From a plasmid: DNA of 64,000 nt. The stretch lies in sequence record NZ_CP072215.1. One strand, given 5' to 3'. The position numbers and the translations under genes were made by a program. Below are positions 27,108 through 44,798 of this stretch, one piece after another. Each line of letters starts with the position of its first letter. Within the stretch, counting starts at the first letter, position 1. The notes below the pieces were generated by a model. The model saw only the letters and a program-made list of their open reading frames with translations, was not told the DNA's origin and did not search any database.

Positions 27108-27110
27108 ATT

Positions 27111-27359
27111 ATGGTAACAAACATTATTCAGATTGGAAACAGCAAGGGGATAATACTTCCTTCCGAGATATTGAAACAGTTGCGTTTGTCCTTGAAATCG
27201 GCTGTGAGCATTTCTTTGGACGGGAACAATATTGTGATAAAGGCACAACCACGGCAGGGATGGGCGGAAGCTGCCAAACGTGCCCATGAGAATGGGGATG
27301 ATGAGTTGCTTATCCCTGATGTGTTTGAGGATGAAAAGTTTGAGGATTGGACATGGTAG
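27111..27359 (+). CDS. mazE: MazE/PemI-type (AbrB/SpoVT-fold) antitoxin
   Basis: IQIGNSKGIILPSEILKQLRLS swapped-hairpin motif. 13-nt overlap with mazF. Confidence 0.7.
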   Translation: MVTNIIQIGNSKGIILPSEILKQLRLSLKSAVSISLDGNNIVIKAQPRQGWAEAAKRAHENGDDELLIPDVFEDEKFEDWTW

Positions 27360-27673
27360 AACAGTATGGAGTGTATTGGGTAGAGTTAGACCCTACCCGT
27401 GGGGGTGAAATGGCAAAGACACGGCCATGTGTTGTTGTAACTCCTTCAGATTTGAATATGTACCTTACAATAGTAGTCATTGCTCCGATAACCTCCACCA
27501 TAAGGAACTATCCTTACCGGGTTCTGTGTTCTGTAGCCGGGCGTGATGGGGAGATAGCCACGGATCAGATTCGCACGGTGGACAAAAGCCGGCTGAAAAG
27601 AAAGATTGGAGATTTGAATTTCAGTGAGATAAAAAGACTGAAGGAAGTGTTTCATCAAATGTTCTGTGAATAA
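27347..27673 (+). CDS. mazF: MazF/PemK endoribonuclease toxin
   Basis: GVYWVELDPTRGGEMAKTRPCVVV... PemK/MazF signature; 108 aa. Confidence 0.85.
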   Translation: MDMVEQYGVYWVELDPTRGGEMAKTRPCVVVTPSDLNMYLTIVVIAPITSTIRNYPYRVLCSVAGRDGEIATDQIRTVDKSRLKRKIGDLNFSEIKRLKEVFHQMFCE

Positions 27674-27722
27674 TGGAAAGTGTGCAAATAACAGGTTATG
27701 TAGCGTATTCAAAAAAGATATT

Positions 27723-28121
27723 ATGAAGCCAACTACTTATATTAATTGGGACGGTCTGAAAGACATTCCATTCTTCTACTGCGATACAAAGGAAGATGAA
27801 GAAAACAAGGATTTCGACATCTATTACCAGGGCAAGCTGGTGTTGCATGACTACAACCATTGCGGACACTACCTTTACACTGCTGCGCTGCTGTTCAGTA
27901 AAATCAGAAACATTACAGCCGACTGGGTGAACCTGCATAACCTTTGGATTCTGCGTGATTGCGTGCGCGAGAATTACAATCACGGCATAGGAGTGGACGA
28001 CCTTATTTTCGGAGAGAATTTCGATGGCAAGAACCTCGATACACTCACACCGCTTACCAAGAAACGCTTTGATTATTTGTGTAAGCGGATTAAGGAACTT
28101 GACCCATACGCAACAATTTAA
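27723..28121 (+). CDS. hypothetical protein
   Basis: ORF from 27666; start probably MKPTTY at 27723 to avoid overlap with mazF. No known motif. Confidence 0.4.
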   Translation: MKPTTYINWDGLKDIPFFYCDTKEDEENKDFDIYYQGKLVLHDYNHCGHYLYTAALLFSKIRNITADWVNLHNLWILRDCVRENYNHGIGVDDLIFGENFDGKNLDTLTPLTKKRFDYLCKRIKELDPYATI

Positions 28122-28220
28122 CACTTCATTGGGCGAAGGCAGGGCTTGCTGCGGATGCCAGACTTTAAATAATCCATTGGATTAATTATCTTTGCACGCT
28201 AATTTTCAAATTATAAAGAA

Positions 28221-28505
28221 ATGACTAAATCGGAAATCGTAAAGGAAATATCTGCCAGAACCGGCATCGACGGCAAAGCGGTGCTTGCTGTTTTGGAAGG
28301 ATTCATGAACGAGGTAAAGACTTCGTTGGGTAAGGAGGAAAATGTCTATCTTCGTGGATTCGGTAGTTTCATAGTGAAGAAGAGAGCGCAAAAGACAGCT
28401 CGGAATATCTCTAAGAATACTACTATGATTATTCCGGCTCATAACATACCGGCATTTAAACCGTCTGACGAATTTTTGAAAATGGTAAAACAACAGAACG
28501 CATAA
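28221..28505 (+). CDS. HU/IHF-family DNA-binding protein
   Basis: MTKSEIVKEISARTGI...GFGSF...ARNISKNTTMIIPAHNIPAFKPS matches the HU fold signature. Confidence 0.9.
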   Translation: MTKSEIVKEISARTGIDGKAVLAVLEGFMNEVKTSLGKEENVYLRGFGSFIVKKRAQKTARNISKNTTMIIPAHNIPAFKPSDEFLKMVKQQNA

Positions 28506-28517
28506 TAGGTAAACACA

Positions 28518-28790
28518 ATGAAAGATCAGTTACGATTATTGAGAGACTGTATCAATAATGATCGTCCGGCAGTTGTCTTTCAGGGAGACGATTTTTGCGC
28601 TCCTGAGATTTTGGAAGCAGCAAAAGAAATTTATCGTAAACATGGTTGTTCCGAAGAATTTCTTTTTGACTGGCAGCTGCTTATCAATGAGGTGAAGGCT
28701 TACCAGTTAGAAAGTCCGGCAACTGTCAAATTGCCGAAACTCTCCCCGACAGAAACGGAACTGGTGCGGGAAGAGATGACTAAACGCTAA
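28518..28790 (+). CDS. hypothetical protein
   Basis: 90-aa ORF 12 bp after the HU gene. Confidence 0.4.
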   Translation: MKDQLRLLRDCINNDRPAVVFQGDDFCAPEILEAAKEIYRKHGCSEEFLFDWQLLINEVKAYQLESPATVKLPKLSPTETELVREEMTKR

Positions 28791-28851
28791 AAAATATTCT
28801 CGTTTAATACGCACCTTTTATTCTTCAGGCAGCGTATTGAACGGGATGGGA

Positions 28852-29229
28852 TTAAAATGTTGGCGAACCTGCTTTTTTCGAAAGTTCCTGCCAATAGTTG
28901 AAGTCACTCGGTGAAAGATGCTCTTGCATCCAGTCACGCATACCAATATCGTTTCTTTCGTTCACATATCTCGTAAACGGAATCATTGTCTTACATGCTT
29001 CAAATCCAAGCATTCTCATATGGCGTGAAATGTTGGGAGGAAGACCTTCCAACCACTCTTTATAATACATTATCAATCTGTTTTCTTGGATTGGAACCGC
29101 TTGTTGGTGGTAAATATAGCTGGCGTTTCCGATTCTAATATCTCTGGCCTTATTTTCCCGTTCTTCTTCAGGTAGCCGACTTAAATATTCAGCTTGTGCT
29201 ATTCTGCATTTGGAGTTTGGATGTTCCAT
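28852..29229 (-). CDS. hypothetical protein
   Basis: 125-aa ORF; first of three tandem minus-strand ORFs. Confidence 0.4.
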   Translation of the reverse strand: MEHPNSKCRIAQAEYLSRLPEEERENKARDIRIGNASYIYHQQAVPIQENRLIMYYKEWLEGLPPNISRHMRMLGFEACKTMIPFTRYVNERNDIGMRDWMQEHLSPSDFNYWQELSKKAGSPTF

Positions 29230-29243
29230 GGTATTTTATATAA

Positions 29244-29570
29244 TTAAGACTCTTCAATGATACGGTTCATCAAATCACATATTTTTTGGCAGCTATGACG
29301 GTCTGCGCAAGCAGGATAGGGGCATTTCTCAAAGGATGCCTGATTATCCGTAACTATGAAACCTCCGGAACGACGTACATAACTTACCGGATGAAAATAA
29401 ATATCTTCCTTTTTCGGCCTATAAGTACATAGTCTTATAAGGCTGTTCAGCTCTTTGCAAATTTGCTCACATTTTTCTTTGGGATAATGTGGCAAATCAC
29501 TGAATGCTTCGTAGGGGACAAAGGCAAATGCTTTGTCATCCCACATGACAGGTGTGTAATTCTGTACCAT
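29244..29570 (-). CDS. hypothetical Cys-rich protein
   Basis: 108-aa ORF with 7 Cys. Confidence 0.4.
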   Translation of the reverse strand: MVQNYTPVMWDDKAFAFVPYEAFSDLPHYPKEKCEQICKELNSLIRLCTYRPKKEDIYFHPVSYVRRSGGFIVTDNQASFEKCPYPACADRHSCQKICDLMNRIIEES

Positions 29571-29615
29571 TTGTTATTTGGAATAAGGATGGCTGGCAGA
29601 TTCCGTATTTCTGTA

Positions 29616-29870
29616 TCAGTTAGGTAATCCGTCACTATTTAAGTGCGCCTGGGCAAACTCCCGGAGGTTCGTTTCGGCAATGCACTTTTCATAAATCTCA
29701 TCCAATACTTCTTGCATATTTTCTACTTTATTGAATTTTAAGGGGCTGCCGTTTGTTGCGGCTTGCCTTTCCAGTTGTTCGATGATACTGGGAAATATCC
29801 CACGCAATAAACCGACGGTAGCTACGGCTGTAGCTGGTTCTACCTCTATTGTAATCTTTTTCTTTTCCAT
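29616..29870 (-). CDS. hypothetical protein
   Basis: 84-aa ORF. Confidence 0.4.
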   Translation of the reverse strand: MEKKKITIEVEPATAVATVGLLRGIFPSIIEQLERQAATNGSPLKFNKVENMQEVLDEIYEKCIAETNLREFAQAHLNSDGLPN

Positions 29871-29972
29871 ATCGTTGTATTATGTTATCAAAAGTAATAA
29901 TTATTAGGATATTGGTAAGCATTTCTTCTGAAAAACTTTTTAAAGATATTGTTTTAAGATGACATACTGTGT

Positions 29973-30659
29973 TTTTGCGTTCACGCAGTATTCTTTCCCA
30001 CCCTCCCCTTCATCGGAATGACTGTTCTCATTTCCGGTTTACCCGTAGTCATCCGCTATGCGGCTGATTATGGGCAAACCAGAAAAGAGAAGTTCCAAAC
30101 GTGGGCGGGATTGCAATGGTCATCATCCGGAGCTTCGGCATTGCCGAAACAACCTCCTTCTTCCGTATTGCAGCCCCGTCCTTTTACCGTTTGTCCCGGC
30201 AGTCCGTTGCTAACCCGTTCCCCCCTGCCACTTGTGGCAGGGAGATAGGAATACGGTTTTGCAGGCAAAACCGTATGGCTTGTTTTACTTTCCGTACTGC
30301 CCTTTTCCTAGTTTTCTGCCTCCCTTAATGTGCGTTTTTCATAGCCCCATCTGAGACCCTTTGTTTTTGAACGGCAAATTTATTTCGGTGGATGGATACG
30401 AAAGAGTTCCGGTCTTCGCCCTTTGTCCCGAAAAAAATAACGCCGGACGGCTTCGCTGTCCCCAACATTTTTTGTCGTCCAAAACTTTTCTTAATCCCTC
30501 CTTCCTTATTGTTGTGTGCCGTAAAAAAAAGGCTCATAAACTCAGATGGGGCATGAAAGCTCAAAAAAAAAGTCGGCAGAAAGAAAAGGCCATCCCGGAA
30601 AGGGGTTTTAAAAAAAGGTCTTTAAATCTAGCTGAAGCATAAAATTAGAAGTTTAACAA
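29973..30659. repeat. repeat family A, copy 1: ~690-bp hairpin-rich non-coding element ending 20 bp before a gene start
   Basis: Near-identical to 33044..33711 and 42146..42833. Starts TTTGCGTTCACGCAGTATTCTTTCCCACCC, ends TCTAGCTGAAGCATAA(AATTAGAAGTTTAACAA). Confidence 0.85.
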
Positions 30660-30678
30660 TCCCAAAAAACAACGAGTT

Positions 30679-31158
30679 ATGTCACGAGTACACTATTTAG
30701 AAGGAGATTATGAACAGTTAGTTATTAATGAAACGATAGACGGTCTTTTTTCCAGTTATCGTATAGACCGCAATTCATTGCCAAAAGGATTTTTCCTTTA
30801 TGAGATTAGATGGGATGACAGCTTATCTTCATTGGCAGAGATTAGCCCCTCTGTGGTGGTGAATCATGCAGGTTCATTCATTACAAAGTCACCCCTTGAA
30901 TTTGATGCAAACAATAGCATACGGATAACCTATACCAATTTTATCGAGTTCTGCCAGTTTGGTGAGTGGGCTTATGAGAAACTGGCTGTATTGGATTGTA
31001 ATTCCGGTAATGTTGCGGTGATAAGCCCAGACAGGAGATTGCAGACCACTGAAGAGATTGAGATTTTTTTGAGTGGGCATTGTGGCTATCATCTGAGTGA
31101 GATTAATTGGATGGTGATGAAAGGCGATGTGCTGTTTTTGAACGAGAACGATTTTTAA
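30679..31158 (+). CDS. hypothetical protein
   Basis: 159-aa ORF; first gene after A copy 1. Confidence 0.5.
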   Translation: MSRVHYLEGDYEQLVINETIDGLFSSYRIDRNSLPKGFFLYEIRWDDSLSSLAEISPSVVVNHAGSFITKSPLEFDANNSIRITYTNFIEFCQFGEWAYEKLAVLDCNSGNVAVISPDRRLQTTEEIEIFLSGHCGYHLSEINWMVMKGDVLFLNENDF

Positions 31159-31214
31159 TGAGTATAACCGTAACTGCCTCTTGGAATGGGGCAATTACAT
31201 AAAATATTATAAGT

Positions 31215-31478
31215 ATGAAGTGGATAGATAAGATGGTAGAACGCATTACCCGAAAAGAAACTGCTTTAAATGACCACTTTTGTGTAAATCGGCATACGGT
31301 TGTATGTCAGAGTGGTATGACTGATTATGTTTCTGTAACGATTGATAATACCGATGGTTTTGATTTCGATTTTTGGACAAAACAACTTTGTTTTGAGAAG
31401 GACTGTAAATATCGCTCGGAGATAAAAGCGGCTTTTGATAAAATCTATGGCACAAGGAATATAGAATGTTGTGAATAA
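31215..31478 (+). CDS. hypothetical Cys-containing small protein
   Basis: 87-aa ORF. Confidence 0.4.
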   Translation: MKWIDKMVERITRKETALNDHFCVNRHTVVCQSGMTDYVSVTIDNTDGFDFDFWTKQLCFEKDCKYRSEIKAAFDKIYGTRNIECCE

Positions 31479-31493
31479 TGAAGTCAGAAAAGT

Positions 31494-32219
31494 ATGATAC
31501 CAAAGGAGATAATGAAACTTTATGAAAAGCTTGCTTTCAGTCGGGGATATGAAGAAGCCTTTCGGGATTTTTTGGATGTTTGTCTTTACTATTTGTCTGT
31601 CGGGATGTTGGCGGAGGATTATCGTAGAGTGGAAAAAAGATATAAGCCATATGAAATGGAACTTTTTGTTCAAATGTTTTATAGGGTGTCTGAATATTCG
31701 GAAGGATTTTGCGATGTCTTGGGAGATATGTTCATGGAGTGTGTCAGTCATGGGAATAACGGACAGTTCTTTACCCCGATACACGTTGCTGATTTGATGG
31801 CATGTATGGGGGGAAATAGGCTGAAACCTAAACAGTCGGTCTGTGATTCGTGCTGTGGTTCCGGCAGGATGCTACTTTCCGCTGTAAAAAAATGTGCGGA
31901 AGAGAATGATGGAGGAAGGCTTTTTTGTTATGGCTCGGATATAGATTTGATTTGTGTAAAGATGACCGTTGTCAATCTGATGATGAATAGCGTACCCGGT
32001 GAAGTCGCATGGATGAATACATTGACAATGCAGCATTGGAGAAGTTATCATATAGATTTACAGCTGATAGCCGGAGTATGGTTGCCTATTTTAAAGATAA
32101 CGGAAGCAGGTGACACTTCTTTTATTAGGAAACTTGAAAATGCAATGGAGGATAATTCTGAATTGAAGAGGTCGATTCAGAGCAACGCAAGGGCTACGCA
32201 GCTGACTTTTGATTTTTGA
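31494..32219 (+). CDS. SAM-dependent N6-adenine DNA methyltransferase-like protein, short, with degenerate motif IV
   Basis: Motif X GQFFTPIHVADLM and motif I VCDSCCGSGRML present. NSVP sits at the position of catalytic (D/N)PP(Y/F). No target-recognition domain; 241 aa. Confidence 0.55.
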   Translation: MIPKEIMKLYEKLAFSRGYEEAFRDFLDVCLYYLSVGMLAEDYRRVEKRYKPYEMELFVQMFYRVSEYSEGFCDVLGDMFMECVSHGNNGQFFTPIHVADLMACMGGNRLKPKQSVCDSCCGSGRMLLSAVKKCAEENDGGRLFCYGSDIDLICVKMTVVNLMMNSVPGEVAWMNTLTMQHWRSYHIDLQLIAGVWLPILKITEAGDTSFIRKLENAMEDNSELKRSIQSNARATQLTFDF

Positions 32220-32248
32220 CAAGATAAATATGTAAAAAGGATTTTGGT

Positions 32249-32572
32249 ATGAAAGCAATAAGAACAAAAGAGGTGAATGAGAACGTCAAAGCGGCGAACA
32301 GTTGTTTGCGTAAAGCGAAATGGCAGGCTAAGGAATTGGCTGTTTTTACAGGTGAAGTAGTGCGTCTGATGGATAAGGAAGGGCATTCTCTACAAGGGTT
32401 CTTTAATCGGGTGGAGTTTGTTCTGGTGGACGGCACTATTAAATTCCGTGTAGTTATAAATCCTATTCTTGAATGTGAGAACTGTATAATGGCTTCTTGC
32501 CATGAAGACTATCTTTATGAGGTGGTCTCGGTGGAAAAGTTTACCTATAAAAATTATAGGTATCATTTGTAA
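32249..32572 (+). CDS. hypothetical protein
   Basis: 107-aa ORF. Confidence 0.4.
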   Translation: MKAIRTKEVNENVKAANSCLRKAKWQAKELAVFTGEVVRLMDKEGHSLQGFFNRVEFVLVDGTIKFRVVINPILECENCIMASCHEDYLYEVVSVEKFTYKNYRYHL

Positions 32573-32925
32573 TGATATTGTATTTTAATGATTATAAACT
32601 GATTTATATTATAACAATGATGGGCAAAATTAATAATATTCCCGTTTTGAATGAAGATGTTATTCGTTTGGTTGTACTCAATGAGGAAATTATTGGGTAT
32701 ATCTATCCACGAAGGACTTCTTATGTGGTGGCATTGGAGATAAAGCCGGGACGTACTACCTCTTTGGCTACATCTGTCAATAAACAATGCATGGTTTTGT
32801 TGAGTGATAAGGTTCGTTTGGCCACGGAACAGGATTTCGATGATTTTCATATATGCTTTGATGGTTTCAGAAATAACACTATGTATTGTTATAATCAGGG
32901 AACGGAACCTATATACCTTCAATGA
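32572..32925 (+). CDS. hypothetical protein
   Basis: 117-aa ORF; start uncertain. Confidence 0.35.
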   Translation: MILYFNDYKLIYIITMMGKINNIPVLNEDVIRLVVLNEEIIGYIYPRRTSYVVALEIKPGRTTSLATSVNKQCMVLLSDKVRLATEQDFDDFHICFDGFRNNTMYCYNQGTEPIYLQ

Positions 32926-32976
32926 AGCACATTCTCCCTTCTTTTGGATTAGGGAAGGGAGGGTATTTTGCTGTCC

Positions 32977-33009
32977 GCTACTTTTTGGCAAGCACCCCAA
33001 AAAAGTAGC
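32977..33009. terminator. palindrome GCTACTTTTTGG-N7-CCAAAAAAGTAGC (same family as 23438 and 44729)
   Basis: 52 bp after the cassette's last stop and 35 bp before A copy 2. Confidence 0.4.
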
Positions 33010-33043
33010 AAAAAACGCTTGGAGTTACTGGTAATCCCATTAA

Positions 33044-33711
33044 TTTGCGTTCACGCAGTATTCTTTCCCACCCTCCCCTTCATCGGAATGACTGTTCTCA
33101 TTCCCGGTTTACCCGTAATCATCCGCTATGCGGCTGATTATGGGTAAACCGGAAAAGAGAAGTTCCAAACGTGGGCGGGATTGCAATGGTCATCATCCGG
33201 AGCTTCGGCATTGCCGAAACAACCTCCTTCTTCCGTATTGCAGTCCCTTCCTTTTACCGTTTGTCCCGGCAGTCCGTTGCTAACCCGTTCCCCCCTGTCA
33301 CTTGTGGCAGGGAGATAGGAGTATGGTTTTGCTTGCAAAACCGTATGGCTTGTTTTACTTTCCGTACTGCCCTTTTCCTTGTTTTCTGCCTCCCCTAATG
33401 TGCTTTTTTCATAGCTCCATCTGAGAGCCTTTGTTTTTGAACGGCAAATTTATTTCGGTGGATGGATACGAAAGAGTTCCGGTCTTCGCCCTTTGTACCG
33501 AAAAAAATAACGCCGGACGGCTTCGCTGTCCCCAACATTTTTTGTCGTCCAAAACTTTTCTTAATCCCTCCTTCCTTATTGATGCGTGCCGTAAAAAAAA
33601 GGCTCATAAACTCAGATGGGGCATGAAAGCTCAAAAAAAAAGTCGGCAGAAAGAAAAGGCCATCCCGGAAAGGGGTTTAAAAAAAGGTCTTTAAATCTAG
33701 CTGAAGCATAA
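33044..33711. repeat. repeat family A, copy 2
   Basis: Near-identical to copy 1. Ends 26 bp before the ATG at 33737. Confidence 0.85.
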
Positions 33712-33736
33712 GTTTAATTTTAATAGATAAAAGACT

Positions 33737-34303
33737 ATGGCACATCAGAGTAAATATCCTAGTTTAGACAGACAATGGCATAAGATGATGTTTTCTTTCT
33801 TTGAGTATCTTCCTATGCAATATCGGCAGGCAACGGAAAGAGAATGGCAAATTCGTAAGATGATATGGAGTTTTAAGGATGGAAAAGCTTATTTGAATAT
33901 AGCTTGGATGATAGCGAATAAGTTACATCAAGTTTTTGGTGATGATGTTAAGAATATTGTTTTTGCTTGTGTTCCGGCTTCTTCCGCTGATAAGAATGAA
34001 CTTCGTTATAAGGGGTTTGCTTCGGCTGTGTGTAAGTTTTCAGGTGCTATCAATGCGTATGAACATATACGTGTCAGTGGAGATCGTTTGGCTATTCACG
34101 AGAAATTTGACAGCAAGTCGCTTCAAAAAGTACAAGTGATAGAATTTGACAAGGACTTTTTTCGGGGTAAGAAAATCTTGGTATTTGACGATATTTTAAC
34201 AAAAGGGTTTTCGTATGCTCGTTTCGCATGTCAGTTGGAAAAAATAGGAGGTGAGGTTTTGGGAGGTTTCTTTTTAGGTAAAACAGTTGTCCGTATGTTA
34301 TAA
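33737..34303 (+). CDS. ComF/GntX-family phosphoribosyltransferase-domain protein (no zinc-finger)
   Basis: PRTase signature KKILVFDDILTKGFSYARFA, preceded by VPASSADKNELRYKGFAS as in the ComFC core. 188 aa; 17-nt overlap with the next gene. Confidence 0.65.
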   Translation: MAHQSKYPSLDRQWHKMMFSFFEYLPMQYRQATEREWQIRKMIWSFKDGKAYLNIAWMIANKLHQVFGDDVKNIVFACVPASSADKNELRYKGFASAVCKFSGAINAYEHIRVSGDRLAIHEKFDSKSLQKVQVIEFDKDFFRGKKILVFDDILTKGFSYARFACQLEKIGGEVLGGFFLGKTVVRML

Positions 34304-34919
34304 GATGAAAGAAAAAGAGAGTTATATAGAGAAGCAGAAGGATATCTTTGGAGATACTACTTGGTTCACTTATCGTTATGAGGTGAATGGAATGGTGTAT
34401 GAAACTTCGGCAGGTTCGTTGGATATATGTAGAAAGGCACGTGATAAATGGATGAAAATGATGTCCGTTGCTTTTACCGGTCATAGAACGATACGAACAA
34501 ATAAATATGCTTTGTCCGTATCGTTGAATGAAGAGGTACGTTTCTGCTATGAGAATGGAATCCGTTTTTTCTATATTGGTTGTGCGGTTGGATTTGACAT
34601 GATGGCTGCTCATACCGTACTTGAACAAAGGAAACAATATCCCGATATGGTTTTGGTGGCGGTTGTTCCTTATGTCGGGCAAGATGTGTATTTCAACAAA
34701 GAGGACAAACAGAGGTATGCTGATATTTTGCGCCAAGCCGACAAGGTGGTAGTTCTATCCGAATATTATTATGCCCAATGCTATGCCCACCGTAATGATT
34801 ACATGATTTCACACGCCTGTAGGCTGATTGCCTATTGGGATGGAAAATCTGCCGGAGGAACTTCTTATACGTTTAACAAGGCACAAAAAAAGAAATTGGT
34901 GATATACAATCTGTTTTGA
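34287..34919 (+). CDS. YpsA-like SLOG-superfamily protein (DUF1273)
   Basis: AFTGHRT N-motif, GCAVGFDMMAAHTVLEQRKQYPD, and C-terminal LIAYWDGKSAGGTSYT align block-for-block with B. subtilis YpsA. Confidence 0.7.
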   Translation: MSVCYKMKEKESYIEKQKDIFGDTTWFTYRYEVNGMVYETSAGSLDICRKARDKWMKMMSVAFTGHRTIRTNKYALSVSLNEEVRFCYENGIRFFYIGCAVGFDMMAAHTVLEQRKQYPDMVLVAVVPYVGQDVYFNKEDKQRYADILRQADKVVVLSEYYYAQCYAHRNDYMISHACRLIAYWDGKSAGGTSYTFNKAQKKKLVIYNLF

Positions 34920-35054
34920 TTCAGATTGTATATCGTTGTTTTCCAGCGGTATGATCAAACGTGGCGATGTCATACTGTCTGGTTGCTGTAAGTGCTAATA
35001 CTTCCGATGCAAAAGAGAAAGACACAATAAATATGAAAAGCAATGATAGATGAA

Positions 35055-36712: not shown

Positions 36713-37162
36713 ATGGAAATTACTCATAAAAATCAAGGAGAACTTGACTCAACCATGCTCCCATTCGTGATGAGAGAGCTGGTAGAACTGGTCATGAAGA
36801 AAAAGGCATTGCCTTTAGGCGATGCACTGTATTATATATATTCTTCCAAGTTGTATAAATCTTTGCTGGATAAGAGTACCAAGTTATGGTATTCAAGTAC
36901 ATTGTCGCTTTATGAAACATTGGAGAAGGAAAAAACAGAAGAAAAACGACGGTATAACGGTGACACGAAGATCCTGCTTTTCAAGATGTTCTGCATTGAG
37001 AATTATAGGGAGGAAAAGAAACAAAGTGCGGAAGAAACCTTGTTGTTGTTTTCGGACTATGGGGTTTTTGATTTTTTGGATGAGACTTTTGAAATGCTTC
37101 ATACCCAAGACCCCGAATATATATTAGATACTATAACGACTTATATCAATAAAAGAAAATGA
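36713..37162 (+). CDS. DUF3791-like protein
   Basis: 149-aa ORF. 4-nt overlap with the downstream gene, the known DUF3791/DUF3990 pairing. Confidence 0.45.
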   Translation: MEITHKNQGELDSTMLPFVMRELVELVMKKKALPLGDALYYIYSSKLYKSLLDKSTKLWYSSTLSLYETLEKEKTEEKRRYNGDTKILLFKMFCIENYREEKKQSAEETLLLFSDYGVFDFLDETFEMLHTQDPEYILDTITTYINKRK

Positions 37163-37641
37163 GACTATTTCATGGATCTACAGTTACCGTGAAACGCCCT
37201 AATATACAGAAAGGACGGAAGGCTACGGACTTTGGGAAGGGATTTTATACGACAACCAACTTTGAACAAGCAAAAAAATGGGCTTTGTTGAAGAAGAACA
37301 GGGAACAGAGCGAAAAAGCAATCGTCTCTGTTTATGAAGTTCCCGATGATATTCTTGATAGGGAATATCCGGTTCTTCGGTTTATGGGTGCAACAAAAGA
37401 ATGGCTGGAGTTTGTTGTCAACAACCGCAGAGGAAGAGAAAACGGTGACTATGACCTAATAATGGGGCCTGTCGCAAATGACCAGTTATATGCGACAATT
37501 CGGCTTTATGAACAGAGAGTTGTTACGGCTGAAGCCGCTATTGAGATGCTGAAAGCGCATAAGTTGTTCAATCAGCTTTCATTTCATACGGTAACAGTCG
37601 CTTTGTTGTTGAAGTTTGTTGAATCAATTGAAGTGGGGTAA
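37159..37641 (+). CDS. DUF3990-like protein
   Basis: MRLFHGSTVTVKRPNIQKGRKATDFGKGFYTT N-terminus typical of DUF3990. Confidence 0.5.
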   Translation: MRLFHGSTVTVKRPNIQKGRKATDFGKGFYTTTNFEQAKKWALLKKNREQSEKAIVSVYEVPDDILDREYPVLRFMGATKEWLEFVVNNRRGRENGDYDLIMGPVANDQLYATIRLYEQRVVTAEAAIEMLKAHKLFNQLSFHTVTVALLLKFVESIEVG

Positions 37642-37694
37642 AGAATATGTGAAGTGAAAATAGGGGGAAGTTTATCCCCCAATGGTAAGGTTGT

Positions 37695-38905
37695 TTTTTG
37701 CGTCCACTTAGTTTTTTCCCACCCACCCTTTCAGCGGAGTGACTGCCCGGCAGTCTGTTGCTTACCCATATGTCCTAGCCTTTTAGGGCTGTAGATAGGT
37801 AGTTGGATATTTCGCTGCCAAATCGGCAGTCCGCTTCAATCGTTTGCTTGCTTTTCTCCGAGTGGAGCCTTTCTGCTTTTCCGGTGGTGTAATCTTCTTT
37901 TATTGGAAACAGGTGTAGTGGCTGTATGCCTGTGTGGTTATGTTCTCCCGCAGAATCCGCAAGTCAGTTCTTCCGTTGCAGCTTTTCATTTTATCGTGCA
38001 GTCACTTTTTTCGATACGTGGAATATGATATGCTTCATTCTTCGGCTTCATTTTTTTAAAAGGAATTGCAGATGTTTCTTCCGGTGTGTCGATAGGCGGC
38101 TGACCATCTTTTCGGGATGTGCCATGCTTGCTGTCTAACCGGTTGTTTTTTGCATCCTTTCCAAACCTGTTACTGATTTTCAAGTTTTGTCTTTTTCATA
38201 TCATTTTTTAGGGAAGTCAAATCATTTTCCGTTGCAAATATAGATTGTTGCTAACCCCTTTTACGGGGATAAGGGGACGATTCACAAACACCACGTTGTT
38301 ATTCGTCTGAAATCTTCCTTTTTTTGCCTTGCACAAAAAGCGTATTTAACCCGAATTATTCGTTGCCATCTTCACCAATAAAAAAGTTACAAATCTTCCT
38401 TTTTCCGGCCAGCATAAAAAGAGTATTTATATCTTTTTTCATGGTGTCCCCCAAAGCCAACAATCAGTTATTGCACTGTAAAATTGATTAATTAACTTCT
38501 AAAAAATCAGAGATATGAAAAAGATTGAAAATTCATTCGCAGTAACAGGCAGGATTTGTAGGGATGCAGAAATCCATTTATTCGAAATAGTAAAGGTTGC
38601 ACACTTCTCTATTGTGGTCAGTCGCATAGGCAAGATAAATGAAGAAAAAACATTTGTTTCCTCTGTTATGAAAGTTGAAGCCTAGAGTAAGATGGAAGAC
38701 CGCTATGCTTTTTGGATACTGCAAAAAGATGTACTGATTACCGTTGAAGGCTACTTTAAGCCGGAAGAATGGACGGATTCTAAAAGTGGGGAGAAACGTA
38801 ACCGCATTGTGATGGTAGCTACTAAGTTCTACCCGACTCCGGAAAAATAAGAACCCCCGGACTAAAAAGAAAAAGCAATCAAACGATTGAAGCGGCACAA
38901 GGTCG
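37695..38905. repeat. segmental duplication, copy 1: family-B structured element + ssb-leader region + decayed ssb (deletion variant)
   Basis: Near-identical to 40735..42105 apart from an internal ~120-bp deletion and the decayed ssb. Confidence 0.75.
38520..38852 (+). pseudogene. ssb-like gene copy with in-frame stop and multiple substitutions
   Basis: Aligns with 41699..42097 but carries a TAG (GAAGCCTAGAGT) and divergent codons. Not present as an ORF in the track. Confidence 0.6.
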
Positions 38906-39019
38906 CTTCAATCGTTTGCTAATGCGGCAGAAGATTATAAAAAAAGTGTTTCTTAATTTGGTGATTTTCAGATTTATCGGTATTTTTGTATCAAAAATGA
39001 TACCTAAATATGTTTTTCT

Positions 39020-39358
39020 ATGAAAAGATTATATGATACATATACAATATACGAATTTTCAGATGAATGTATTGTAAAGGAAATCTGCAAGAGAGTTAAG
39101 TCTATAAGACTTAGCTGCTGTTTTTCCCAGCAAGAATTTGCGGATAAGGCAGGAGTATCTATCGTTACTATTAAGAGAATAGAATCTTGTAAAGTAAGTG
39201 ATATTGCCCTAAGTACATTGCTTAAGATTTTGCGTATAAGTGGAACTCTTGAAGGCGTTGTCGGTTTGGTTCCGGAACTTCCAGACTCCCCTTTCCTAAT
39301 CAATGAAAAAACAGGTAAAAGAATACAAAGAATTAACGGTAAACGTAAGATGGTATGA
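39020..39358 (+). CDS. hipB: HipB-like XRE-family HTH protein
   Basis: FSQQEFADKAGVSIVTIKRIESCK HTH. 4-nt overlap with the hipA-like gene. Confidence 0.6.
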   Translation: MKRLYDTYTIYEFSDECIVKEICKRVKSIRLSCCFSQQEFADKAGVSIVTIKRIESCKVSDIALSTLLKILRISGTLEGVVGLVPELPDSPFLINEKTGKRIQRINGKRKMV

Positions 39359-40632
39359 AGAAAGAGCCGATTATAGTGAATGTATATCTGTGGGGGACTT
39401 GCATTGGCAAATTGAATTGGGACTTTGAAAAGCATTGTTCTGTATTCCAATTTACGGATGAATATAGGAAACAAGATTATGATATATGCCCTTCCACACA
39501 CCCTAAGAGAACCCCTTTGTTTGCGTCTTTCTATGGGAATAAAGATAAATTATATCAAGGGCTTCCGGAATTTCTTGCAGATGCGCTTCCTGACAAATGG
39601 GGGGCTTCCCTATTTGACCAATGGCTCACGGATAATAATATAAAGGTTACGGAATCATTGCCTCTATTGAAGCTCTCTTATATTGGCAAGAGGGCTATGG
39701 GAGCATTGGAATTTGAACCGGAATTTAATGATGATGCCATCCATGAGTCAGTAAATATGTCATCATTGGCAACTTTGGCTTCTAAAATATATAATGATCG
39801 AGATGCTGCTGTCATATCACCGGAGGATAGCCTCACGATGAAAAAGTTGATATATCTTGGAACTTCTGCCGGTGGCATGCGCCCGAAGGCAGTGATTGCC
39901 TATAATCTCGAAACGGAAGAGTTTCGTTCCGGCCAGGTGGATTTGCCTGAAAATTTTAAGCAGTATATCATCAAATTTAAAGAAGCAGATGACTCTCCTA
40001 CCACAGAGATAGAAATGGTATATAGCGAAATGGCAAAGGCGGCGGGAATCAACATGATGCCATGCTTCCTGAAAGAAATTGATGGAAGAAATCATTTCGT
40101 AACGGAAAGATTTGATCGTAAGAATGGAGAAAAGCTCTTTAGTCAGACCCTTGCGGCCATTATGCCGGGTGCAGATGATTATATGAAGCTGTGTTGGATA
40201 GCAGAGACTCTGAAACTTCCCCAGGAAGACAAAGATCAGATATTTATCAGAATGGTATTTAATTATGTCGCAGGTATATCCGATGATCATAATAAGAACA
40301 TATCGTTTATCATGGATAAGGCAGGGGTATGGCGTTTATCACCTGCATATGATGTAATGTTCACGGCAAATACATGGGAAAATTCTTCAGCACACATTCA
40401 TTCGATGGGCGTGATGGGCAAAAGGTCTGCCTTGACTACAAGTGATTTCGTCAACTTTGCCGAGGATTTTGTAGAGGAGCCCGAAAAGAAGATATTACAG
40501 GTGTTCGATGCTGTAAGCAAATTTCAATCGTTATGCGCCACGTATGGCATAGATAAGGCTATATTTGATAAAATCCAACATGTATTGGATGGATTGGTCA
40601 CTGATGATTTGGATTTGCTGCAATTAACTTAA
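39355..40632 (+). CDS. hipA: HipA-family kinase toxin (second copy, canonical length)
   Basis: 425 aa. Catalytic loop ISDDHNKNISFIMD and TERFDRKNGEKL motif. ~40% identical to 382..1971. Confidence 0.8.
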   Translation: MKKEPIIVNVYLWGTCIGKLNWDFEKHCSVFQFTDEYRKQDYDICPSTHPKRTPLFASFYGNKDKLYQGLPEFLADALPDKWGASLFDQWLTDNNIKVTESLPLLKLSYIGKRAMGALEFEPEFNDDAIHESVNMSSLATLASKIYNDRDAAVISPEDSLTMKKLIYLGTSAGGMRPKAVIAYNLETEEFRSGQVDLPENFKQYIIKFKEADDSPTTEIEMVYSEMAKAAGINMMPCFLKEIDGRNHFVTERFDRKNGEKLFSQTLAAIMPGADDYMKLCWIAETLKLPQEDKDQIFIRMVFNYVAGISDDHNKNISFIMDKAGVWRLSPAYDVMFTANTWENSSAHIHSMGVMGKRSALTTSDFVNFAEDFVEEPEKKILQVFDAVSKFQSLCATYGIDKAIFDKIQHVLDGLVTDDLDLLQLT

Positions 40633-40734
40633 AGAACAGTAGATGGTGATAGTTGCTCCAGTCTTTTCTGGAACGGCTTTCTTTTCTTTTGAGATCTTTA
40701 TACCCCTATTTGTTATTTTGGAGAAAGTCACATG

Positions 40735-42105
40735 TTTCCCACCCACCCTTTCAGCGGAGTGACTGTCCCCGTTTCAGGATTTCTCATAGTCACTCGCAGG
40801 CTCCGTGATTGTGTGAAATCCAGGAATGGGGAAGGCAAAGGAGAGAGGCATATCCGGTCTGCTTTCGGAGCTTCGGCCACATCGAGACAACCTCTTTCCG
40901 GCGGCTATGCCACTCTCCTTTTATTTGCCCGGCAGTCTGTTGCTTACCCATATGCCCCAGCCTTTTAGGGCTGTATATAGGTAGTCGGATATTTCGCCGC
41001 TAAATCGGCAGTCCGCTTCAATCGTTTGCTTGCTTTTCTCCGAGTGGATGCCTTTCTGTTTTTCCGGTTGTATAATCTTCTTTTTCCGGAAACAGTTGTA
41101 GTGGCTGTATGCCTGTATGGTTATGTTCTCCCCGCAGAATCCGCAAGTCTGTTCTTCCGTTGCAGCCTTTCATTTTATCGTGCAGTCACTTTTTTCGATA
41201 CGTGGAATATTGTATGCTTCATTCTTCGGCTTCATTTTTTTAAAAGGAATTGCAGAGGTTTCTTCCGGTGTGTCGATAGGCGGCTGACCATATTTTCGGA
41301 ATGTGCCATGCTTGCTGTCTGACCGGTTGTTTTTTGCATCCTTTCCAAACCTGTTGCTGATTTTCAAGTTTTGTCTTTTTCATATCATTTTTTAGGGAAG
41401 TCAAATCATTTTCCGTTGCAAATATAGATTGTTGCTAACCCCTTTTACGGGGATAAGGGGACGATTCACAAACACCACGTTGTTATTCGTCTGAAATCTT
41501 CCTTTTTTTGCCTTGCATAAAAAGCGTATTTAACCCGAATTATTTGCTGCCATCTTCACCAATAAAAAAGTTACAAATCTTCCTTTTTCCGGCCAGCATA
41601 AAAAGAGTATTTATATCTTTTTTCATGGTGTCCCCCAAAGCCAACAATCAGTTATTGCACTGTAAAATTGATTAATTAACTTCTAAAAAATCAGAGATAT
41701 GAAAAAGATTGAAAATTCATTCGCAGTAACAGGTTTTATCGGTAAGGATGCAGAAATCCGTAGTTTTGAAACAGCAAGCGTAGCACGCTTTTCTATCGCG
41801 GTCAGCCGTGCAGACAAGACAGGTGAAGAAACCTCTTATGTTTCCGCTTTCATGGGGATTGAAGCCTGGAGAAAGAATGAAGCACTGGATTCCTTCGATG
41901 TATTGAAAAAAGGTGAGCTGATAACCGTTGAAGGCTACTTTAAGCCGGAAGAATGGACGGATTCTAAAAGTGGGGAGAAGCGTAACCGCATTGTGATGGT
42001 AGCCACCAAGTTTTATCCGGCTCCGGAAAAAGAAGAAGAAAAACCGGATCAGCCTAAACAGAAGGCTGTCTCTAAAAAGAAAAAAGCAAGCAAATGATTG
42101 AAGCG
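40735..42105. repeat. segmental duplication, copy 2: family-B element (full length) + leader + intact ssb
   Basis: See 37695..38905. Its family-B element retains a segment homologous to family A (GGAGCTTCGGCCACATCGAGACAACCTC). Confidence 0.75.
41699..42097 (+). CDS. ssb: single-stranded DNA-binding protein (OB-fold, conjugative-element type)
   Basis: FAVTGFIGKDAEIRSF...ARFSIAVSR...WRK...GELITVEGYFKPEEWTDSKSGEKRNRIV pattern and acidic/K-rich tail. Confidence 0.7.
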   Translation: MKKIENSFAVTGFIGKDAEIRSFETASVARFSIAVSRADKTGEETSYVSAFMGIEAWRKNEALDSFDVLKKGELITVEGYFKPEEWTDSKSGEKRNRIVMVATKFYPAPEKEEEKPDQPKQKAVSKKKKASK

Positions 42106-42145
42106 GCCTAGTGCCGCTTTTTTTTGCTACATATCCGAGAGTGTT

Positions 42146-42833
42146 TTTGCGTTCACGCAGTATTCTTCCCCACCCTCCCCTTCATCGGAATGACTGTTCT
42201 CATTCCCGGTTTGCCCGTAGTCATCCGCTATGCGGCTGATTATGGGCAAACCAGAAAAGAGAAGTTCCAAACGTGGGCGGGATTGCAATGGTCATCATCC
42301 GGAGCTTCGGCATTGCCGAAACAACCTCCTTCTTCCGTATTGCAGTTCCTTCCTTTTACCGTTTGTCCCGGCAGTCCGTTGCTAACCCGTTCCCCCCCTG
42401 TCACTTGTGGCAGGGAGATAGGAATACGGTTTTGCAAGCAAAACCGTATGGTTTGTTTTACTTTCCGTACTGCCCTTTTCCTTGTTTTCTGCCTCCCCTA
42501 ATGTGCTTTTTTCATAGCTCCATCTGAGATCCTTTGTTTTTGAACGGCAAATTTATTTCGGTGGATGGATACGAAAGAGTTCCGGTCTTCGCCCCTTTGT
42601 CCCGAAAAAAATAACGCCGGACGGCTTCGCTGTCCCCAACATTTTTTGTCGTCCAAAACTTTTCTTAATCCCTCCTTCCTTATTGTTGTGTGCCGTAAAA
42701 AAAAGGCTCATAAACTCAGATGGGGCATGAAAGCTCAAAAAAAAAGTCGGCAGAAAGAAAAGGCCATCCCGGAAAGGGGTTTTAAAAAAAGGTCTTTAAA
42801 TCTAGCTGAAGCATAAAATTAGAAGTTTAACAA
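42146..42833. repeat. repeat family A, copy 3
   Basis: Near-identical to copies 1 and 2. Ends 19 bp before the ATG at 42852. Confidence 0.85.
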
Positions 42834-42851
42834 ACTAAGTAGCAGAAGTAT

Positions 42852-43043
42852 ATGCAAATCATTCAATTTGTTTTTTCGGTCATCATCGCTCTTTGTGCAG
42901 TGGCTATGTTTGTCGGAGCGGTAATAACGCCAAGTCCGATAAAGGTTGTGTCGGTTACGTTGTTGGCTCTTATTTGCCTATTCTCCTTGTTTCTCGTGAA
43001 ATTGGCTTATTGTGAAATGAAATCTAAAAATGATATACTATGA
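42852..43043 (+). CDS. small hydrophobic membrane protein
   Basis: 63 aa, two TM helices. 4-nt overlap with the PcfK-like gene. Confidence 0.35.
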   Translation: MQIIQFVFSVIIALCAVAMFVGAVITPSPIKVVSVTLLALICLFSLFLVKLAYCEMKSKNDIL

Positions 43044-43450
43044 AAGTGTCAGAACAATTTAAAAGTACCATCAAGGCATACCTTGATAATATGGCAGCGG
43101 TGGATAGTCTGTTTGCTCCAGTCTATCAAAAACCTACAAAGAATATAGATAATTGCATTACCTATATTTTAAACCAAGTGAAGAAAAGCGGTTGCTGTGG
43201 TTTTAGTGATGATGAAATTTTTGGTATGGCGTTGCACTATTATCAGGAAGATAATATTGAGGTGGGTAGCCCATTGAAATGTAATGTAGTCGTAAATCAT
43301 CATGTTGAATTGTCAGAGGAAGAAAAGAAAGCGGCTCGTGAGGCTGCTATCAAAAAATTGCAGGAGGAAGAATTGGCAAAGTTGAAGAAGCGTCAACAAG
43401 CTAAACGTGAGAACAACACCGAAGTACAAACCCAGTTAACTCTTTTTTGA
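43040..43450 (+). CDS. PcfK-like protein
   Basis: 136 aa with a charged C-terminal coiled region. Directly precedes the PcfJ-like gene with a 2-bp gap, as in Bacteroides CTns. Confidence 0.55.
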   Translation: MKVSEQFKSTIKAYLDNMAAVDSLFAPVYQKPTKNIDNCITYILNQVKKSGCCGFSDDEIFGMALHYYQEDNIEVGSPLKCNVVVNHHVELSEEEKKAAREAAIKKLQEEELAKLKKRQQAKRENNTEVQTQLTLF

Positions 43451-43451
43451 T

Positions 43452-44699
43452 ATGAAACCCAAGACAAAATTACAAATGGAAATCGTGAATGGGAGCAGGA
43501 AGTTAGCTCCCGTTTCAGAGGCTCAAAAGCGTTATGCCTATAAACATTGCTTTGTGCATTATTTCAAGCGTGATGCAAAGGGGAATTGCTTTTGTTTGGA
43601 TTGTGGGCATACATGGCGGGATAAGGAAGATAAGAAAAACTGTAAATGTCCTCATTGCGGTATGAACCTGAAATTGGAGAATAGCAGGAAAAGGACGGCT
43701 GTATATAAAGAATATTTTTGTGTGATTACTACATACAAGCAATATCAAGTTATCCGTTTTTTTATGGTGGACTGCCGGCTGAAAAAAGGGTCTCCGGCTA
43801 ATTACTTTATAATTGAGGCGGTACAGTGTTGGATGAATAAAGAGGGCAAGACAGAAACGCTGTCTTTGCTGCGGGGCATGTCTATATTTTATTACGATGC
43901 ATGGATATATGGAAGTTCTTTGGAATTGCGTAAGCGGAATGTGCATCATGACCGTATTTATGATATTTGCCCGGCAGTTATCTATCCGAGAATGAAAGTG
44001 ATACCCGAACTTACGAGGAATGGATTTAAGGGTGCCTTTTATGATATTTGTCCGAGTTCCTTCTTTATGACATTATTAACTGATAATCGGATGGAGATAT
44101 TATATAAGGCAGGGCAAATGAATTTGTTCTTGAGATTTTTAGAGAGAAAATACGGTATAGATAAGTATTGGACGTATGTAAAAATCTGTTTAAGACATGA
44201 CTATGTGATACATGATGCGGACTTGTGGCTGGACTATGTGGATATGCTGATAGAAAATAAATTGGATGCGAGAAATCCTCATTATTTGTGTCCGTTGAAT
44301 GTAGAAGAAGCGCATGATTGGGTGATGGGGAAATGTAAGAAAAAATATTCTGAAAAGGATGAAAAAGACTATATTGCTGCCAAATCACGTTTCTTTAATC
44401 TTTCGTTTGCGGATGGAAATATTATGGTTCGGGTATTGGAAAGCCTTTCGGACTTTTACAAAGAGGGAAAGTTGCTGCATCATTGTGTATTCAGCAACGC
44501 CTATTATAAGAGAGAAGATTCGTTGATAATGTCGGCAACGGTGGATGGAAGGCGCATGGAAACGGTGGAGTTTTCACTTAGCAGGATGGAGGTGTGCCAG
44601 TGTCGTGGAAAGTCTAACCAATTATCAGCCTATCATGACCGGATTCTGAATTTGGTACGGGATAATATACCGTTGATAAGGGAAAGGATGGTAGTGTAA
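43452..44699 (+). CDS. PcfJ-like protein
   Basis: 415 aa. N-terminal Cys4 ribbon CFCLDCGHTW...CKCPHCG, then a conserved large domain. Confidence 0.6.
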   Translation: MKPKTKLQMEIVNGSRKLAPVSEAQKRYAYKHCFVHYFKRDAKGNCFCLDCGHTWRDKEDKKNCKCPHCGMNLKLENSRKRTAVYKEYFCVITTYKQYQVIRFFMVDCRLKKGSPANYFIIEAVQCWMNKEGKTETLSLLRGMSIFYYDAWIYGSSLELRKRNVHHDRIYDICPAVIYPRMKVIPELTRNGFKGAFYDICPSSFFMTLLTDNRMEILYKAGQMNLFLRFLERKYGIDKYWTYVKICLRHDYVIHDADLWLDYVDMLIENKLDARNPHYLCPLNVEEAHDWVMGKCKKKYSEKDEKDYIAAKSRFFNLSFADGNIMVRVLESLSDFYKEGKLLHHCVFSNAYYKREDSLIMSATVDGRRMETVEFSLSRMEVCQCRGKSNQLSAYHDRILNLVRDNIPLIRERMVV

Positions 44700-44706
44700 T
44701 GAATAG

Positions 44707-44761
44707 CCCACACATCTAAATGTGTGGGAGTTCTTTTTTGGAAGACGCCCAAAAAAGAACC
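44707..44761. terminator. tandem hairpins: CCCACACA-TCTAAA-TGTGTGGG, then palindrome GTTCTTTTTTGG-N7-CCAAAAAAGAAC
   Basis: Begins 8 bp after the PcfJ-like stop. Second hairpin is the third copy of the 13-bp-arm palindrome family. Confidence 0.5.
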
Positions 44762-44798
44762 CCAAAAAACGTTGTCGCTACACATCGTTACGCTCGGA

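Follow-up and report, generated by a model that had tools for sequence, protein, structure and literature searches.

Repeated hairpin leaders with inverted −7 boxes upstream of co-oriented gene cassettes on a pMMCAT-family plasmid: possible single-strand promoters

The window analyzed here, a stretch of 64,000 nucleotides (nt) from a plasmid (sequence record NZ_CP072215.1), contains a gene island (27111–44699) that abuts the convergent end of a transfer region. The island is a mosaic of operons with ordinary double-strand promoters and an array of six co-oriented cassettes, each preceded by a long non-coding leader. Taken by itself, the set of genes is what is usual for a conjugative element, and part of it has been described before; the most unusual feature of the island is the leaders, which form hairpins and carry inverted promoter boxes. 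Positions 27000–45000 (18 kb) are 100% identical to the Bacteroides plasmids NZ_CP059857.1 (76 kb) and NZ_CP102939.1 (72.5 kb), and Parabacteroides and Phocaeicola plasmids are nearly identical to this stretch. The wider window holds an Mfa-type fimbrial locus with a LuxR regulator, a radical-SAM pair with a metallo-β-lactamase (MBL)-fold protein, several HipBA pairs and a Bacteroidetes-type type IV secretion system. As both the backbone identity and these hallmark loci match, the window can be assigned on sequence grounds to the pMMCAT family of Bacteroidales conjugative plasmids, and the element as such is thus already known. In addition to the fimbrial and radical-SAM loci, it shares with pMMCAT the toxin-antitoxin pairs, a putative anti-CRISPR system and a type IV conjugation system; it fits the 72–76-kb variants, and the exopolysaccharide (EPS) locus of pMMCAT was not seen in the window. 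The pMMCAT preprint (Garcia-Bayona et al., bioRxiv 10.1101/2024.04.29.590671) speaks of a "putative anti-CRISPR system" and counts five toxin-antitoxin pairs; origin of transfer (oriT), leading region and non-coding elements or leaders are terms that do not occur in it.

Gene calls were checked by Pfam, by the annotation of identical plasmids with the Prokaryotic Genome Annotation Pipeline (PGAP), or by both. The genes named in a first-pass annotation, which had been made from the sequence letters alone, were thereby confirmed, namely mazEF, HU, a partial methyltransferase, a YpsA-SLOG protein, DUF3791/DUF3990, hipBA, SSB and PcfK/PcfJ and, on the minus strand, toprim, type IV coupling protein (T4CP), ssb and ardC. 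Its statement that almost everything in the island lies on the plus strand is correct for most genes, but three of the open reading frames (ORFs) that it listed (28852–29870) and an insertion sequence that it did not list (35064–36419) are on the minus strand.

Repeated non-coding leader DNA makes up ~4.3 kb, about a quarter of the island. Three A-type leaders of ~700 nt each are mutually 97% identical: A1 (29974–30678), composed of a 5′ module (29974–30320) and a 3′ hairpin module (30320–30678), A2 (33044–33736; 97% identical to A1) and A3 (42146–42851). Two B-type leaders of 800–960 nt, B1 (37715–38514) and B2 (40735–41698), precede ssb genes and are 96% identical over ~785 nt, within a wider duplicated unit, including ssb, that is 91% identical over ~1.1 kb; B2 joins an A-like 5′ module (40735–40962) to a B-type hairpin module (~41290–41698). 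Upstream of the ORF starting at 24330, a degenerate A-type leader comprises the 3′ hairpin module (24038–24329; 120 bits in nhmmer). All leaders share the plus-strand orientation and run up to the start codon of the gene that follows. A common 22-mer (A1 copy at 30195–30216) occurs five times, compared to 0.01 expected occurrences. A seventh leader copy, in the same orientation, is found outside the window, upstream of a DUF2958 cassette in NZ_CP059857.1. We rejected the leaders as coding DNA, as the short ORFs that PGAP places inside them are broken or shifted between copies.

Two further sequence features were observed within the leaders. The 5′ module of each A leader contains a near-perfect palindrome with ~33-bp arms (30025–30091, 33095–33161 and 42197–42263), which exhibits compensatory changes relative to the A-like module of B2. 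In each ssb leader, a ~40-nt motif is present twice in tandem (41490–41615 and 38310–38430), reading AATCTTCC TTTTT... on the plus strand and AATACGCTTTTT ... GAAAAAGGAAGATT on the minus strand. The motif hardly varies between lineages, folds as two local hairpins that show covariation and could represent a protein-binding or priming site.

The degenerate leader is followed by an acidic 132-residue ORF (24330–24728, plus strand; UniRef name "Phage ABA sandwich domain"), which had originally been counted among the ORFs of the island even though it lies outside the range then given for it (27111–44761). Leader A1 heads a plus-strand cassette (30679–32925) encoding an LPD28 protein, an 87-residue ORF, a truncated HsdM-like protein (31494–32219), a 107-residue ORF and a 102/117-residue ORF. 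The LPD28 protein (30679–31158) had been listed as lacking a recognizable domain, while Pfam detects LPD28 at 5.6e-17; a single-sequence AlphaFold model of this protein, with a predicted local distance difference test (pLDDT) score of 48, was not used. The HsdM-like ORF bears a partial N6_Mtase domain and belongs to a family of ~240-residue proteins with 569 homologues at E ≤ 1e-5. S-adenosylmethionine (AdoMet) motifs X and I are present, with GQFFTP and D..CGSGR invariant in 29 homologues, and catalytic motif IV, (N/D)PP(F/Y/W), is absent across the whole family in an alignment of the homologues, and the C-terminal portion of such enzymes is likewise lacking. The ORF aligns with residues 174–291 of EcoR124 HsdM, and we take the NPPY motif of HsdM to lie just past the end of this match. 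A structural model (pLDDT 86.6) gave only partial Foldseek matches to methyltransferases, with template modeling scores of at most 0.48. A decaying methyltransferase was ruled out by the conserved ~240-residue family with its intact AdoMet motifs; a role in AdoMet binding, or as a decoy for type I restriction-modification, is speculation.

Leader A2 precedes a plus-strand gene pair (33737–34919) encoding a phosphoribosyltransferase (PRTase; 33737–34303) and a YpsA-family SLOG protein (34305–34919). Pfam alone supports the PRTase assignment only weakly (E = 0.014); PF00156 matches in homologues and the PGAP name back it. YpsA-PRTase gene pairs constitute a recognized clade (PMC6459960), and YpsA-type SLOG domains of viruses are predicted to destroy cyclic ADP-ribose-type immune signals (PMC9503650). 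Further along the plus strand are DUF3791 (36713–37162) and DUF3990 (37159–37641). Between the two gene pairs sits a minus-strand IS4-family element (35064–36419; transposase 35113–36276) bounded by 40-nt inverted repeats (35064–35103 and 36380–36419), which probably splits one former cassette. Leaders B1 and B2 are followed by ssb1 (38515–38850) and ssb2 (41699–42097), respectively, both on the plus strand. Both ssb loci of the first-pass annotation are therefore present, but only ssb2 is intact; ssb1 is a pseudogene in the window due to a premature stop at codon 57, which specifies Trp in the intact allele of the otherwise near-identical plasmid NZ_CP102939.1. Of the two paralogues, ssb1 is diverging faster.

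Leader A3 heads a plus-strand cassette (42852–44699) comprising a 63-residue membrane ORF, PcfK (43040–43450) and PcfJ (43452–44699). The PcfK ORF matches PF14058 at 2.4e-51, CP126057.1 encodes an identical protein under the annotation AcrIIA9 family, and AcrIIA9 carries a PcfK domain (PMC6739104). PcfK can thus be classed by sequence as a member of the AcrIIA9-domain family and as a candidate Cas9 inhibitor. For the remaining small ORFs, searches of Pfam (including relaxed thresholds), NCBIfam and PHROGs gave no match except phrog_11458 (unknown function) for 32572–32925, and a concatenated query of ten small ORFs returned no homologues. Exact copies of each of these ORFs nevertheless occur on at least 743 public contigs, and the 90% clusters have 444–1833 members, mostly full-length among those read; the ORFs are real and prevalent. 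None of the small ORFs is acidic enough to point to a DNA mimic, the most negative net charge being −13 (LPD28 protein).

The primary promoter of Bacteroides consists of a −33 TTTG and a −7 TAnnTTTG element (quoted in PMC8748976). In the window, the −7 element is a good predictor: TAnnTTTG is found 24–75 nt upstream of the first gene in at least 12 ordinary operons, including those of mazE, HU, hipB, the three minus-strand ORFs, the IS4 transposase, a Rep-like gene and RhuM. No sense −7 box is present within 300 nt upstream of the five strong leader cassettes (A1–A3, B1 and B2), and none was found upstream of DUF3791/DUF3990. Instead, each of the five exhibits exactly one box on the opposite, minus strand, 273–297 nt upstream of the ATG. 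In A1, this box (TAAATTTG, 30375–30382) is situated in an internal loop of the hairpin and precedes the ATG at 30679 by 297 nt; the others are located at 33445–33452 (A2), 42548–42555 (A3), 38235–38242 (B1, TATATTTG) and 41419–41426 (B2), and the degenerate leader carries the variant AACCTTTG, likewise on the minus strand. The inverted boxes have no minus-strand gene within 500 nt downstream; the closest such gene, at 512 nt from the A1 box, is served by a box of its own (29896). We also noted a sense −7 box (TATGTTTG) at 42905, inside the 63-residue ORF and 135 nt upstream of PcfK, which could allow some expression of PcfK/PcfJ from duplex DNA, independent of leader A3.

The same cassette architecture recurs in the diverged plasmids CP103159.1 (B. 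fragilis) and NZ_CP103198.1 (P. vulgatus) and in metagenomic contigs. Their cassettes (PcfK/J, ssb, DUF2958 and PRTase-SLOG) are co-oriented, each behind a gap of 0.4–1 kb, and the arrays converge on toprim-T4CP-ssb-ArdC, with cassette order and content varying by plasmid. Between lineages, only the 3′ part of the leaders (~330–420 nt) is conserved, at ~75% identity for the A type and ~71% for the ssb-linked B type. The inverted box is kept in most diverged lineages, and its two nn positions vary: A-type boxes read TAAATTTG (AA) or TACCTTTG (CC), with AACCTTTG in locus L216 as in the copy at 24038, and B-type boxes read TATATTTG (AT), TAAATTTG (AA), TAACTTTG (AC) or TACCTTTG (CC). Moreover, four further leaders at PRTase loci have no detectable sequence similarity to the A type, and the ssb leader of L227 matches the B-type profile weakly; in all five, the 3′ arm of a long hairpin holds an antisense box that precedes the ATG by 186–254 nt, and no sense box is present within 700 nt, save one that lies 690 nt upstream in L221. 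As to the scope of these comparisons, a metagenome scan by the exact 22-mer recovered copies that were all at least 90% identical and hence held little covariation, while a scan of a genome collection by a 17-base pattern yielded mostly chance matches, among which only L028 was real.

Leader A1 folds far more stably than shuffled sequence (z = −7.8 and −7.4 as RNA, −6.4 as DNA). When the minus strand is read, the box is located in the 3′ arm of a long hairpin in every lineage. The 5′ half of the box is placed in an internal loop (~11 × 12 nt in the A type, ~5 × 4 nt in the B type), a conserved stem follows directly after the box (TGCCGT/ACGGCA in the A type, TTGCA/TGCAA in the B type), and more pairing is found upstream of the box. 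The B-type consensus comprises 110 pairs, 26 of which show compensatory changes; column shuffles gave 12.4 ± 2.3, with 0 of 500 reaching the observed number, and controls with slid partners gave 2–6. In the alignment, the B-type helix directly upstream of the box is formed by wholly different sequences in three lineages. The A-type consensus contains 65 pairs, mostly invariant, of which 7 are compensatory. A simple, Frpo-style arrangement of one long hairpin with −33 and −7 boxes was rejected, since the B-type consensus is multi-branched and a good −33 element is lacking.

Relaxase genes usually enter the recipient last during transfer. The main MobC gene and the gene for a 466-residue relaxase reside on the plus strand just past the right end of the window (window-equivalent ~65.9–68.0 kb), together with a predicted oriT. 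Because this operon is on the plus strand and under the relaxase-last rule, we infer that the minus strand of the window is the transferred strand (T-strand) and that the plus-strand genes are templated by it. The same strand carries all seven inverted boxes, and the two lines of reasoning are independent and agree. As in CTnDOT (PMC3809561), the mob operon is divergent from ParA/DUF3408 and the tra operon, and where oriT lies relative to the relaxase also served to orient the elements in a survey of leading regions (PMC11541004). We could assign neither a nick motif nor a nicked strand in the ParA-mobC intergenic region, which contains an AT-rich repeat block and an inverted repeat (GTTACAA/TTGTAAC) whose spacer includes GTGCG. 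Between the main predicted oriT and PcfJ lie ~21 kb with 23 ORFs, mostly tra genes in the opposite orientation; in order from the predicted oriT come ParA, DUF3408, a Rep-like gene, Crp, the tra genes, ArdC, ssb3, T4CP and toprim, none of which is oriented for templating by the inferred T-strand. By position, therefore, the island is not the leading region that the first-pass annotation had taken it for. Its proposed nature as an establishment or anti-defense island is supported by the type of content (AcrIIA9-family PcfK, SSBs, toxin-antitoxin pairs, the methyltransferase-like protein and PRTase-SLOG) and, should the main relaxase follow the relaxase-last rule, would be supported by orientation.

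Taking these observations together, we tentatively favor the idea that the leaders are Frpo-like single-strand promoters that are active just after transfer, and put its probability at roughly 45%. On the transferred minus strand, each 3′ module would fold as a hairpin, in which the inverted σABfr −7 box (TAnnTTTG) would be pre-melted in the bubble of the 3′ arm and would serve as the non-template strand of the promoter. Host RNA polymerase would start at the box and leave via the base of the hairpin, along the transferred strand and into the cassette. The folded box would be equivalent to one positioned ~41–49 nt upstream of the ssb ATG, where the plasmid's normal range is 24–75 nt, and 65–160 nt upstream for the other cassettes, with calculated 5′ untranslated regions (5′UTRs) of ~40 nt for ssb and 65–160 nt for the others. 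The same start might prime synthesis of the complementary strand. In the duplex plasmid, the box would point away from the genes and the cassettes would be silent. Such a switch would follow the same logic by which Frpo elements zygotically induce ssb and anti-defense genes (PMC11541004).

Several points weigh against this interpretation. The transfer polarity derives from a rule of thumb, and the same rule points the other way when applied to a second, small mob module on the minus strand (17609–18945), which is situated beside insertion sequence remnants and encodes a 315-residue relaxase (17609–18556) and a MobC/NikA-like protein; this relaxase would predict the plus strand as the transferred one, the wrong polarity for the island genes. 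The module may be a captured mobilizable unit with its own oriT of opposite polarity. The array is ~21–39 kb away from the predicted oriT, and in NZ_CP059857.1 a leader with its DUF2958 cassette and several small ORFs (15188–16428; 5189–6429 of L228) lies downstream of the main relaxase, i.e., at the trailing end; early entry is therefore not common to the cassettes, and what they share is strand orientation only. A clear −33 TTTG is missing, the A type having TTTC and the B type none. The hairpins can form equally well on either strand or in sense RNA, and counts of G:T versus A:C pairs are symmetric for the A type and lean weakly to the minus strand for the B type. Finally, small serine recombinase genes are found near the arrays in several lineages, and the promoter-to-ATG distances fit an invertible promoter in its OFF state equally well; folding and inversion are the same mirror operation, so that distances cannot separate the two.

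Invertible promoters (invertons) are thus the most serious rival, one that we regard as unlikely but would not set aside lightly. Here, the hairpin arms would be repeats for a recombinase, perhaps the 198-residue serine recombinase encoded at 24841–25437, and flipping of a 176–240-nt segment would aim the −7 box at the cassettes, rendering their expression phase-variable. Segment length and the placement of a promoter inside inverted repeats fit known invertons (PMC8748976), pMMCAT is known to carry invertible promoters at its EPS locus, serine recombinase genes of resolvase/invertase size occur close to the arrays of the window, L211, L212 and L216, and the flipped box would come to stand at plausible promoter distances from the ATG, between ~45 nt (ssb) and ~160 nt. 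However, none of 63 A-type and none of 57 B-type copies from independent contigs and plasmids was inverted relative to its flanks, at least 12 lineages all being in the same "OFF" state; assemblies report only the majority orientation, and a strongly OFF-biased switch would be compatible with these data. The arms, moreover, are not the short, clean repeats of an inverton: they are long (~30 to more than 60 nt), with imperfections and bulges, and pairing goes on inside the putative invertible segment up to the box. An inverton would have no need for the 18 of the 26 B-type compensatory pairs that fall into local internal hairpins, nor would inversion require that all cassettes be co-oriented with the mob operon, and in L219, L221, L224 and L227 there is no recombinase gene within ~6 kb.

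Alternatively, the leaders might act as RNA, either as a long, structured sense 5′UTR (a riboregulator or antitermination element) whose promoter would be distant or non-canonical, or as an antisense non-coding RNA of ~400–700 nt that would start from the inverted box, run over the 5′ module and regulate the cassette. The sense strand indeed folds strongly too (z = −7.8), in consensus energy the plus strand at least equals the minus strand, the inverted box is a perfect double-strand consensus that would fire leftwards in the established plasmid, and the 5′ modules hold conserved hairpins with compensatory changes between A and B leaders. No sense box, however, is present within 300 nt (window cassettes) or 700 nt (distant loci, save one at 690 nt in L221). 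An antisense RNA would start past the box without the partner arm, leaving the long hairpin around the box unexplained, and its body, the 5′ module, is the least conserved part between lineages. In addition, no leader matched an Rfam family at gathering or E-value thresholds. Each of the two versions accounts for only part of the pattern, and we consider it rather unlikely that either explains the leaders. More improbable still is that the island is a cargo dump unlinked to transfer, with leaders as recombination scars or hot spots and strand bias as mere co-orientation of neighbors. Cassette order and content do vary between related plasmids while leaders recur between cassettes, the 97% identity of direct copies suggests ongoing recombination or gene conversion, and an insertion sequence has entered the array. 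Yet this explanation covers neither the covariation nor the placement of a box in a bubble in leaders of unrelated sequence, nor the absence of sense promoters specifically from leader cassettes; it is compatible with the other explanations rather than an alternative to them.

Single-strand promoters of the Frpo/ssi kind, reportedly described by Masai and Arai in 1997, belong to the leading regions of F-like and other proteobacterial conjugative plasmids. Our leaders share with such regions the repetition of ~300-nt structured non-coding elements upstream of ssb and anti-defense genes, the placement of promoter elements within a long imperfect hairpin with mismatches at the melting box (an analogy of structure and position only), the orientation of genes with what would here be the transferred strand as template, and a gene mix of SSB, anti-CRISPR, methyltransferase-like and toxin-antitoxin functions. 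They differ in that no sequence relationship was found, the leaders being set beside Frpo by architecture and not by direct sequence comparison, in their use of the Bacteroides −7 element TAnnTTTG instead of σ70 −35/−10 elements, in their length of 0.7–1 kb with an additional structured 5′ module, and in the location of the array behind a ~20-kb tra operon, not beside oriT. Frpo elements recur upstream of ssb and anti-defense genes, all of them templated by the T-strand (Samuel et al. 2024, PMC11541004). With Bacteroides invertons controlled by Mpi or tyrosine recombinases, the leaders have in common a consensus promoter in a 170–240-nt segment bounded by inverted repeats upstream of an operon, as well as nearby recombinase genes; in contrast to these, they occur in one orientation only (120 copies, at least 12 lineages), have long, imperfect repeats with inner pairing and covariation, and precede genes for DNA handling and anti-defense, not surface structures. 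In integrative and conjugative elements (ICEs) of Bacteroidota of the CTnDOT type, PcfK-PcfJ and small ORFs also converge on the distal end of the traA-Q operon, as in a Prevotella example (L213), where, unlike in the window, the genes are tightly packed and long leaders are not evident in the annotation.

The other part of the mosaic consists of operons with ordinary promoters. mazE (27111–27359) and mazF (27353–27673) are followed by a 132-residue ORF in one plus-strand unit (27111–28121) with sense −7 boxes at 27060 and 27070, and HU (28221–28505; sense box at 28187) is followed by a 90-residue ORF on the plus strand, the unit ending at 28790. Three ORFs of 125, 108 and 84 residues (28852–29229, 29244–29570 and 29616–29870) form the minus-strand operon with its own box at 29896. 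hipB (39020–39358) and hipA (39355–40632), on the plus strand, have an ordinary sense box at 38981. These four groups look like maintenance genes or unrelated cargo, and a role in plasmid maintenance is most likely for mazEF and HU with their attached ORFs, the minus-strand trio and hipBA. The ten small ORFs that had been proposed as one group of anti-defense candidates therefore do not form a unit: five belong to leader cassettes, two to the mazEF and HU operons and three to the minus-strand operon. This distinction between ordinary promoters and leaders narrows the list, and judged from sequence the best candidates for early expression would be the ORFs starting at 24330, 30679, 31215, 31494, 32249 and 32572 together with PRTase-SLOG. 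Facing the array, the convergent end of the transfer region (44799–50453, minus strand) encodes a lipoprotein, toprim (45338–46363), a second lipoprotein, T4CP (46941–48887), ssb3, an SSB (48899–49282), and ArdC (49260–50453).

Other features were observed elsewhere in the window. Three related hairpins, GGTTCTTTTTTGG...CCAAAAAAGAACC followed by a run of A residues, mark cassette ends (23436–23478, 32974–33016 and 44727–44769) and look like bidirectional terminators. Two RhuM-family genes form an inverted pair of ~850 nt with 67% identity (10822–11653 and 25850–26697), each adjoining a small serine recombinase gene (11920–12558, plus strand; 24841–25437, minus strand). Two paralogous Rep-like proteins are encoded on opposite strands (20678–21886 and 62876–64000). 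A 108-nt repeat carrying a −7 box (4016–4123 and 20557–20664; 94% identical) is found once upstream of the first Rep-like gene and once downstream of an AAA-ATPase gene. Fragments of a DDE transposase (19060–20220) adjoin the second mob module. The region 13325–15638 harbors radical SAM mobile pair A/B and the MBL-fold hydrolase with AraC regulators on the flanks, as already noted for pMMCAT.

The leader cassettes are the part of the island worth following up, whether the leaders turn out to be single-strand promoters or invertons; cassettes with inverted −7 box leaders are not mentioned in the literature that we searched. It seems possible, if still somewhat doubtful, that conjugative plasmids of gut Bacteroidales, and probably related ICEs, possess a previously undescribed family of ~300-nt single-stranded DNA promoters that would switch on modular cassettes behind the tra operon transiently, in a zygotic manner. 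Few mobile elements of the human gut are shared as widely as plasmids of the pMMCAT type, and Bacteroidales promoters are unlike those of the σ70 type, on which single-strand promoters and leading-region anti-defense islands were defined. Should the leaders be invertons, SSB and anti-CRISPR genes would be under an unusual, phase-variable control. Should they be single-strand promoters, zygotic induction would be a feature of one more phylum, whose promoters follow a different grammar, and a sequence rule for early establishment and anti-defense genes in Bacteroidota elements would follow: a long hairpin, an inverted TAnnTTTG in its bubble and no sense box. Such a rule would give the transfer polarity of Bacteroidota elements without mapping of nic, and leader-marked cassettes would provide a ready catalogue of early establishment and anti-defense genes for the dominant gut phylum.

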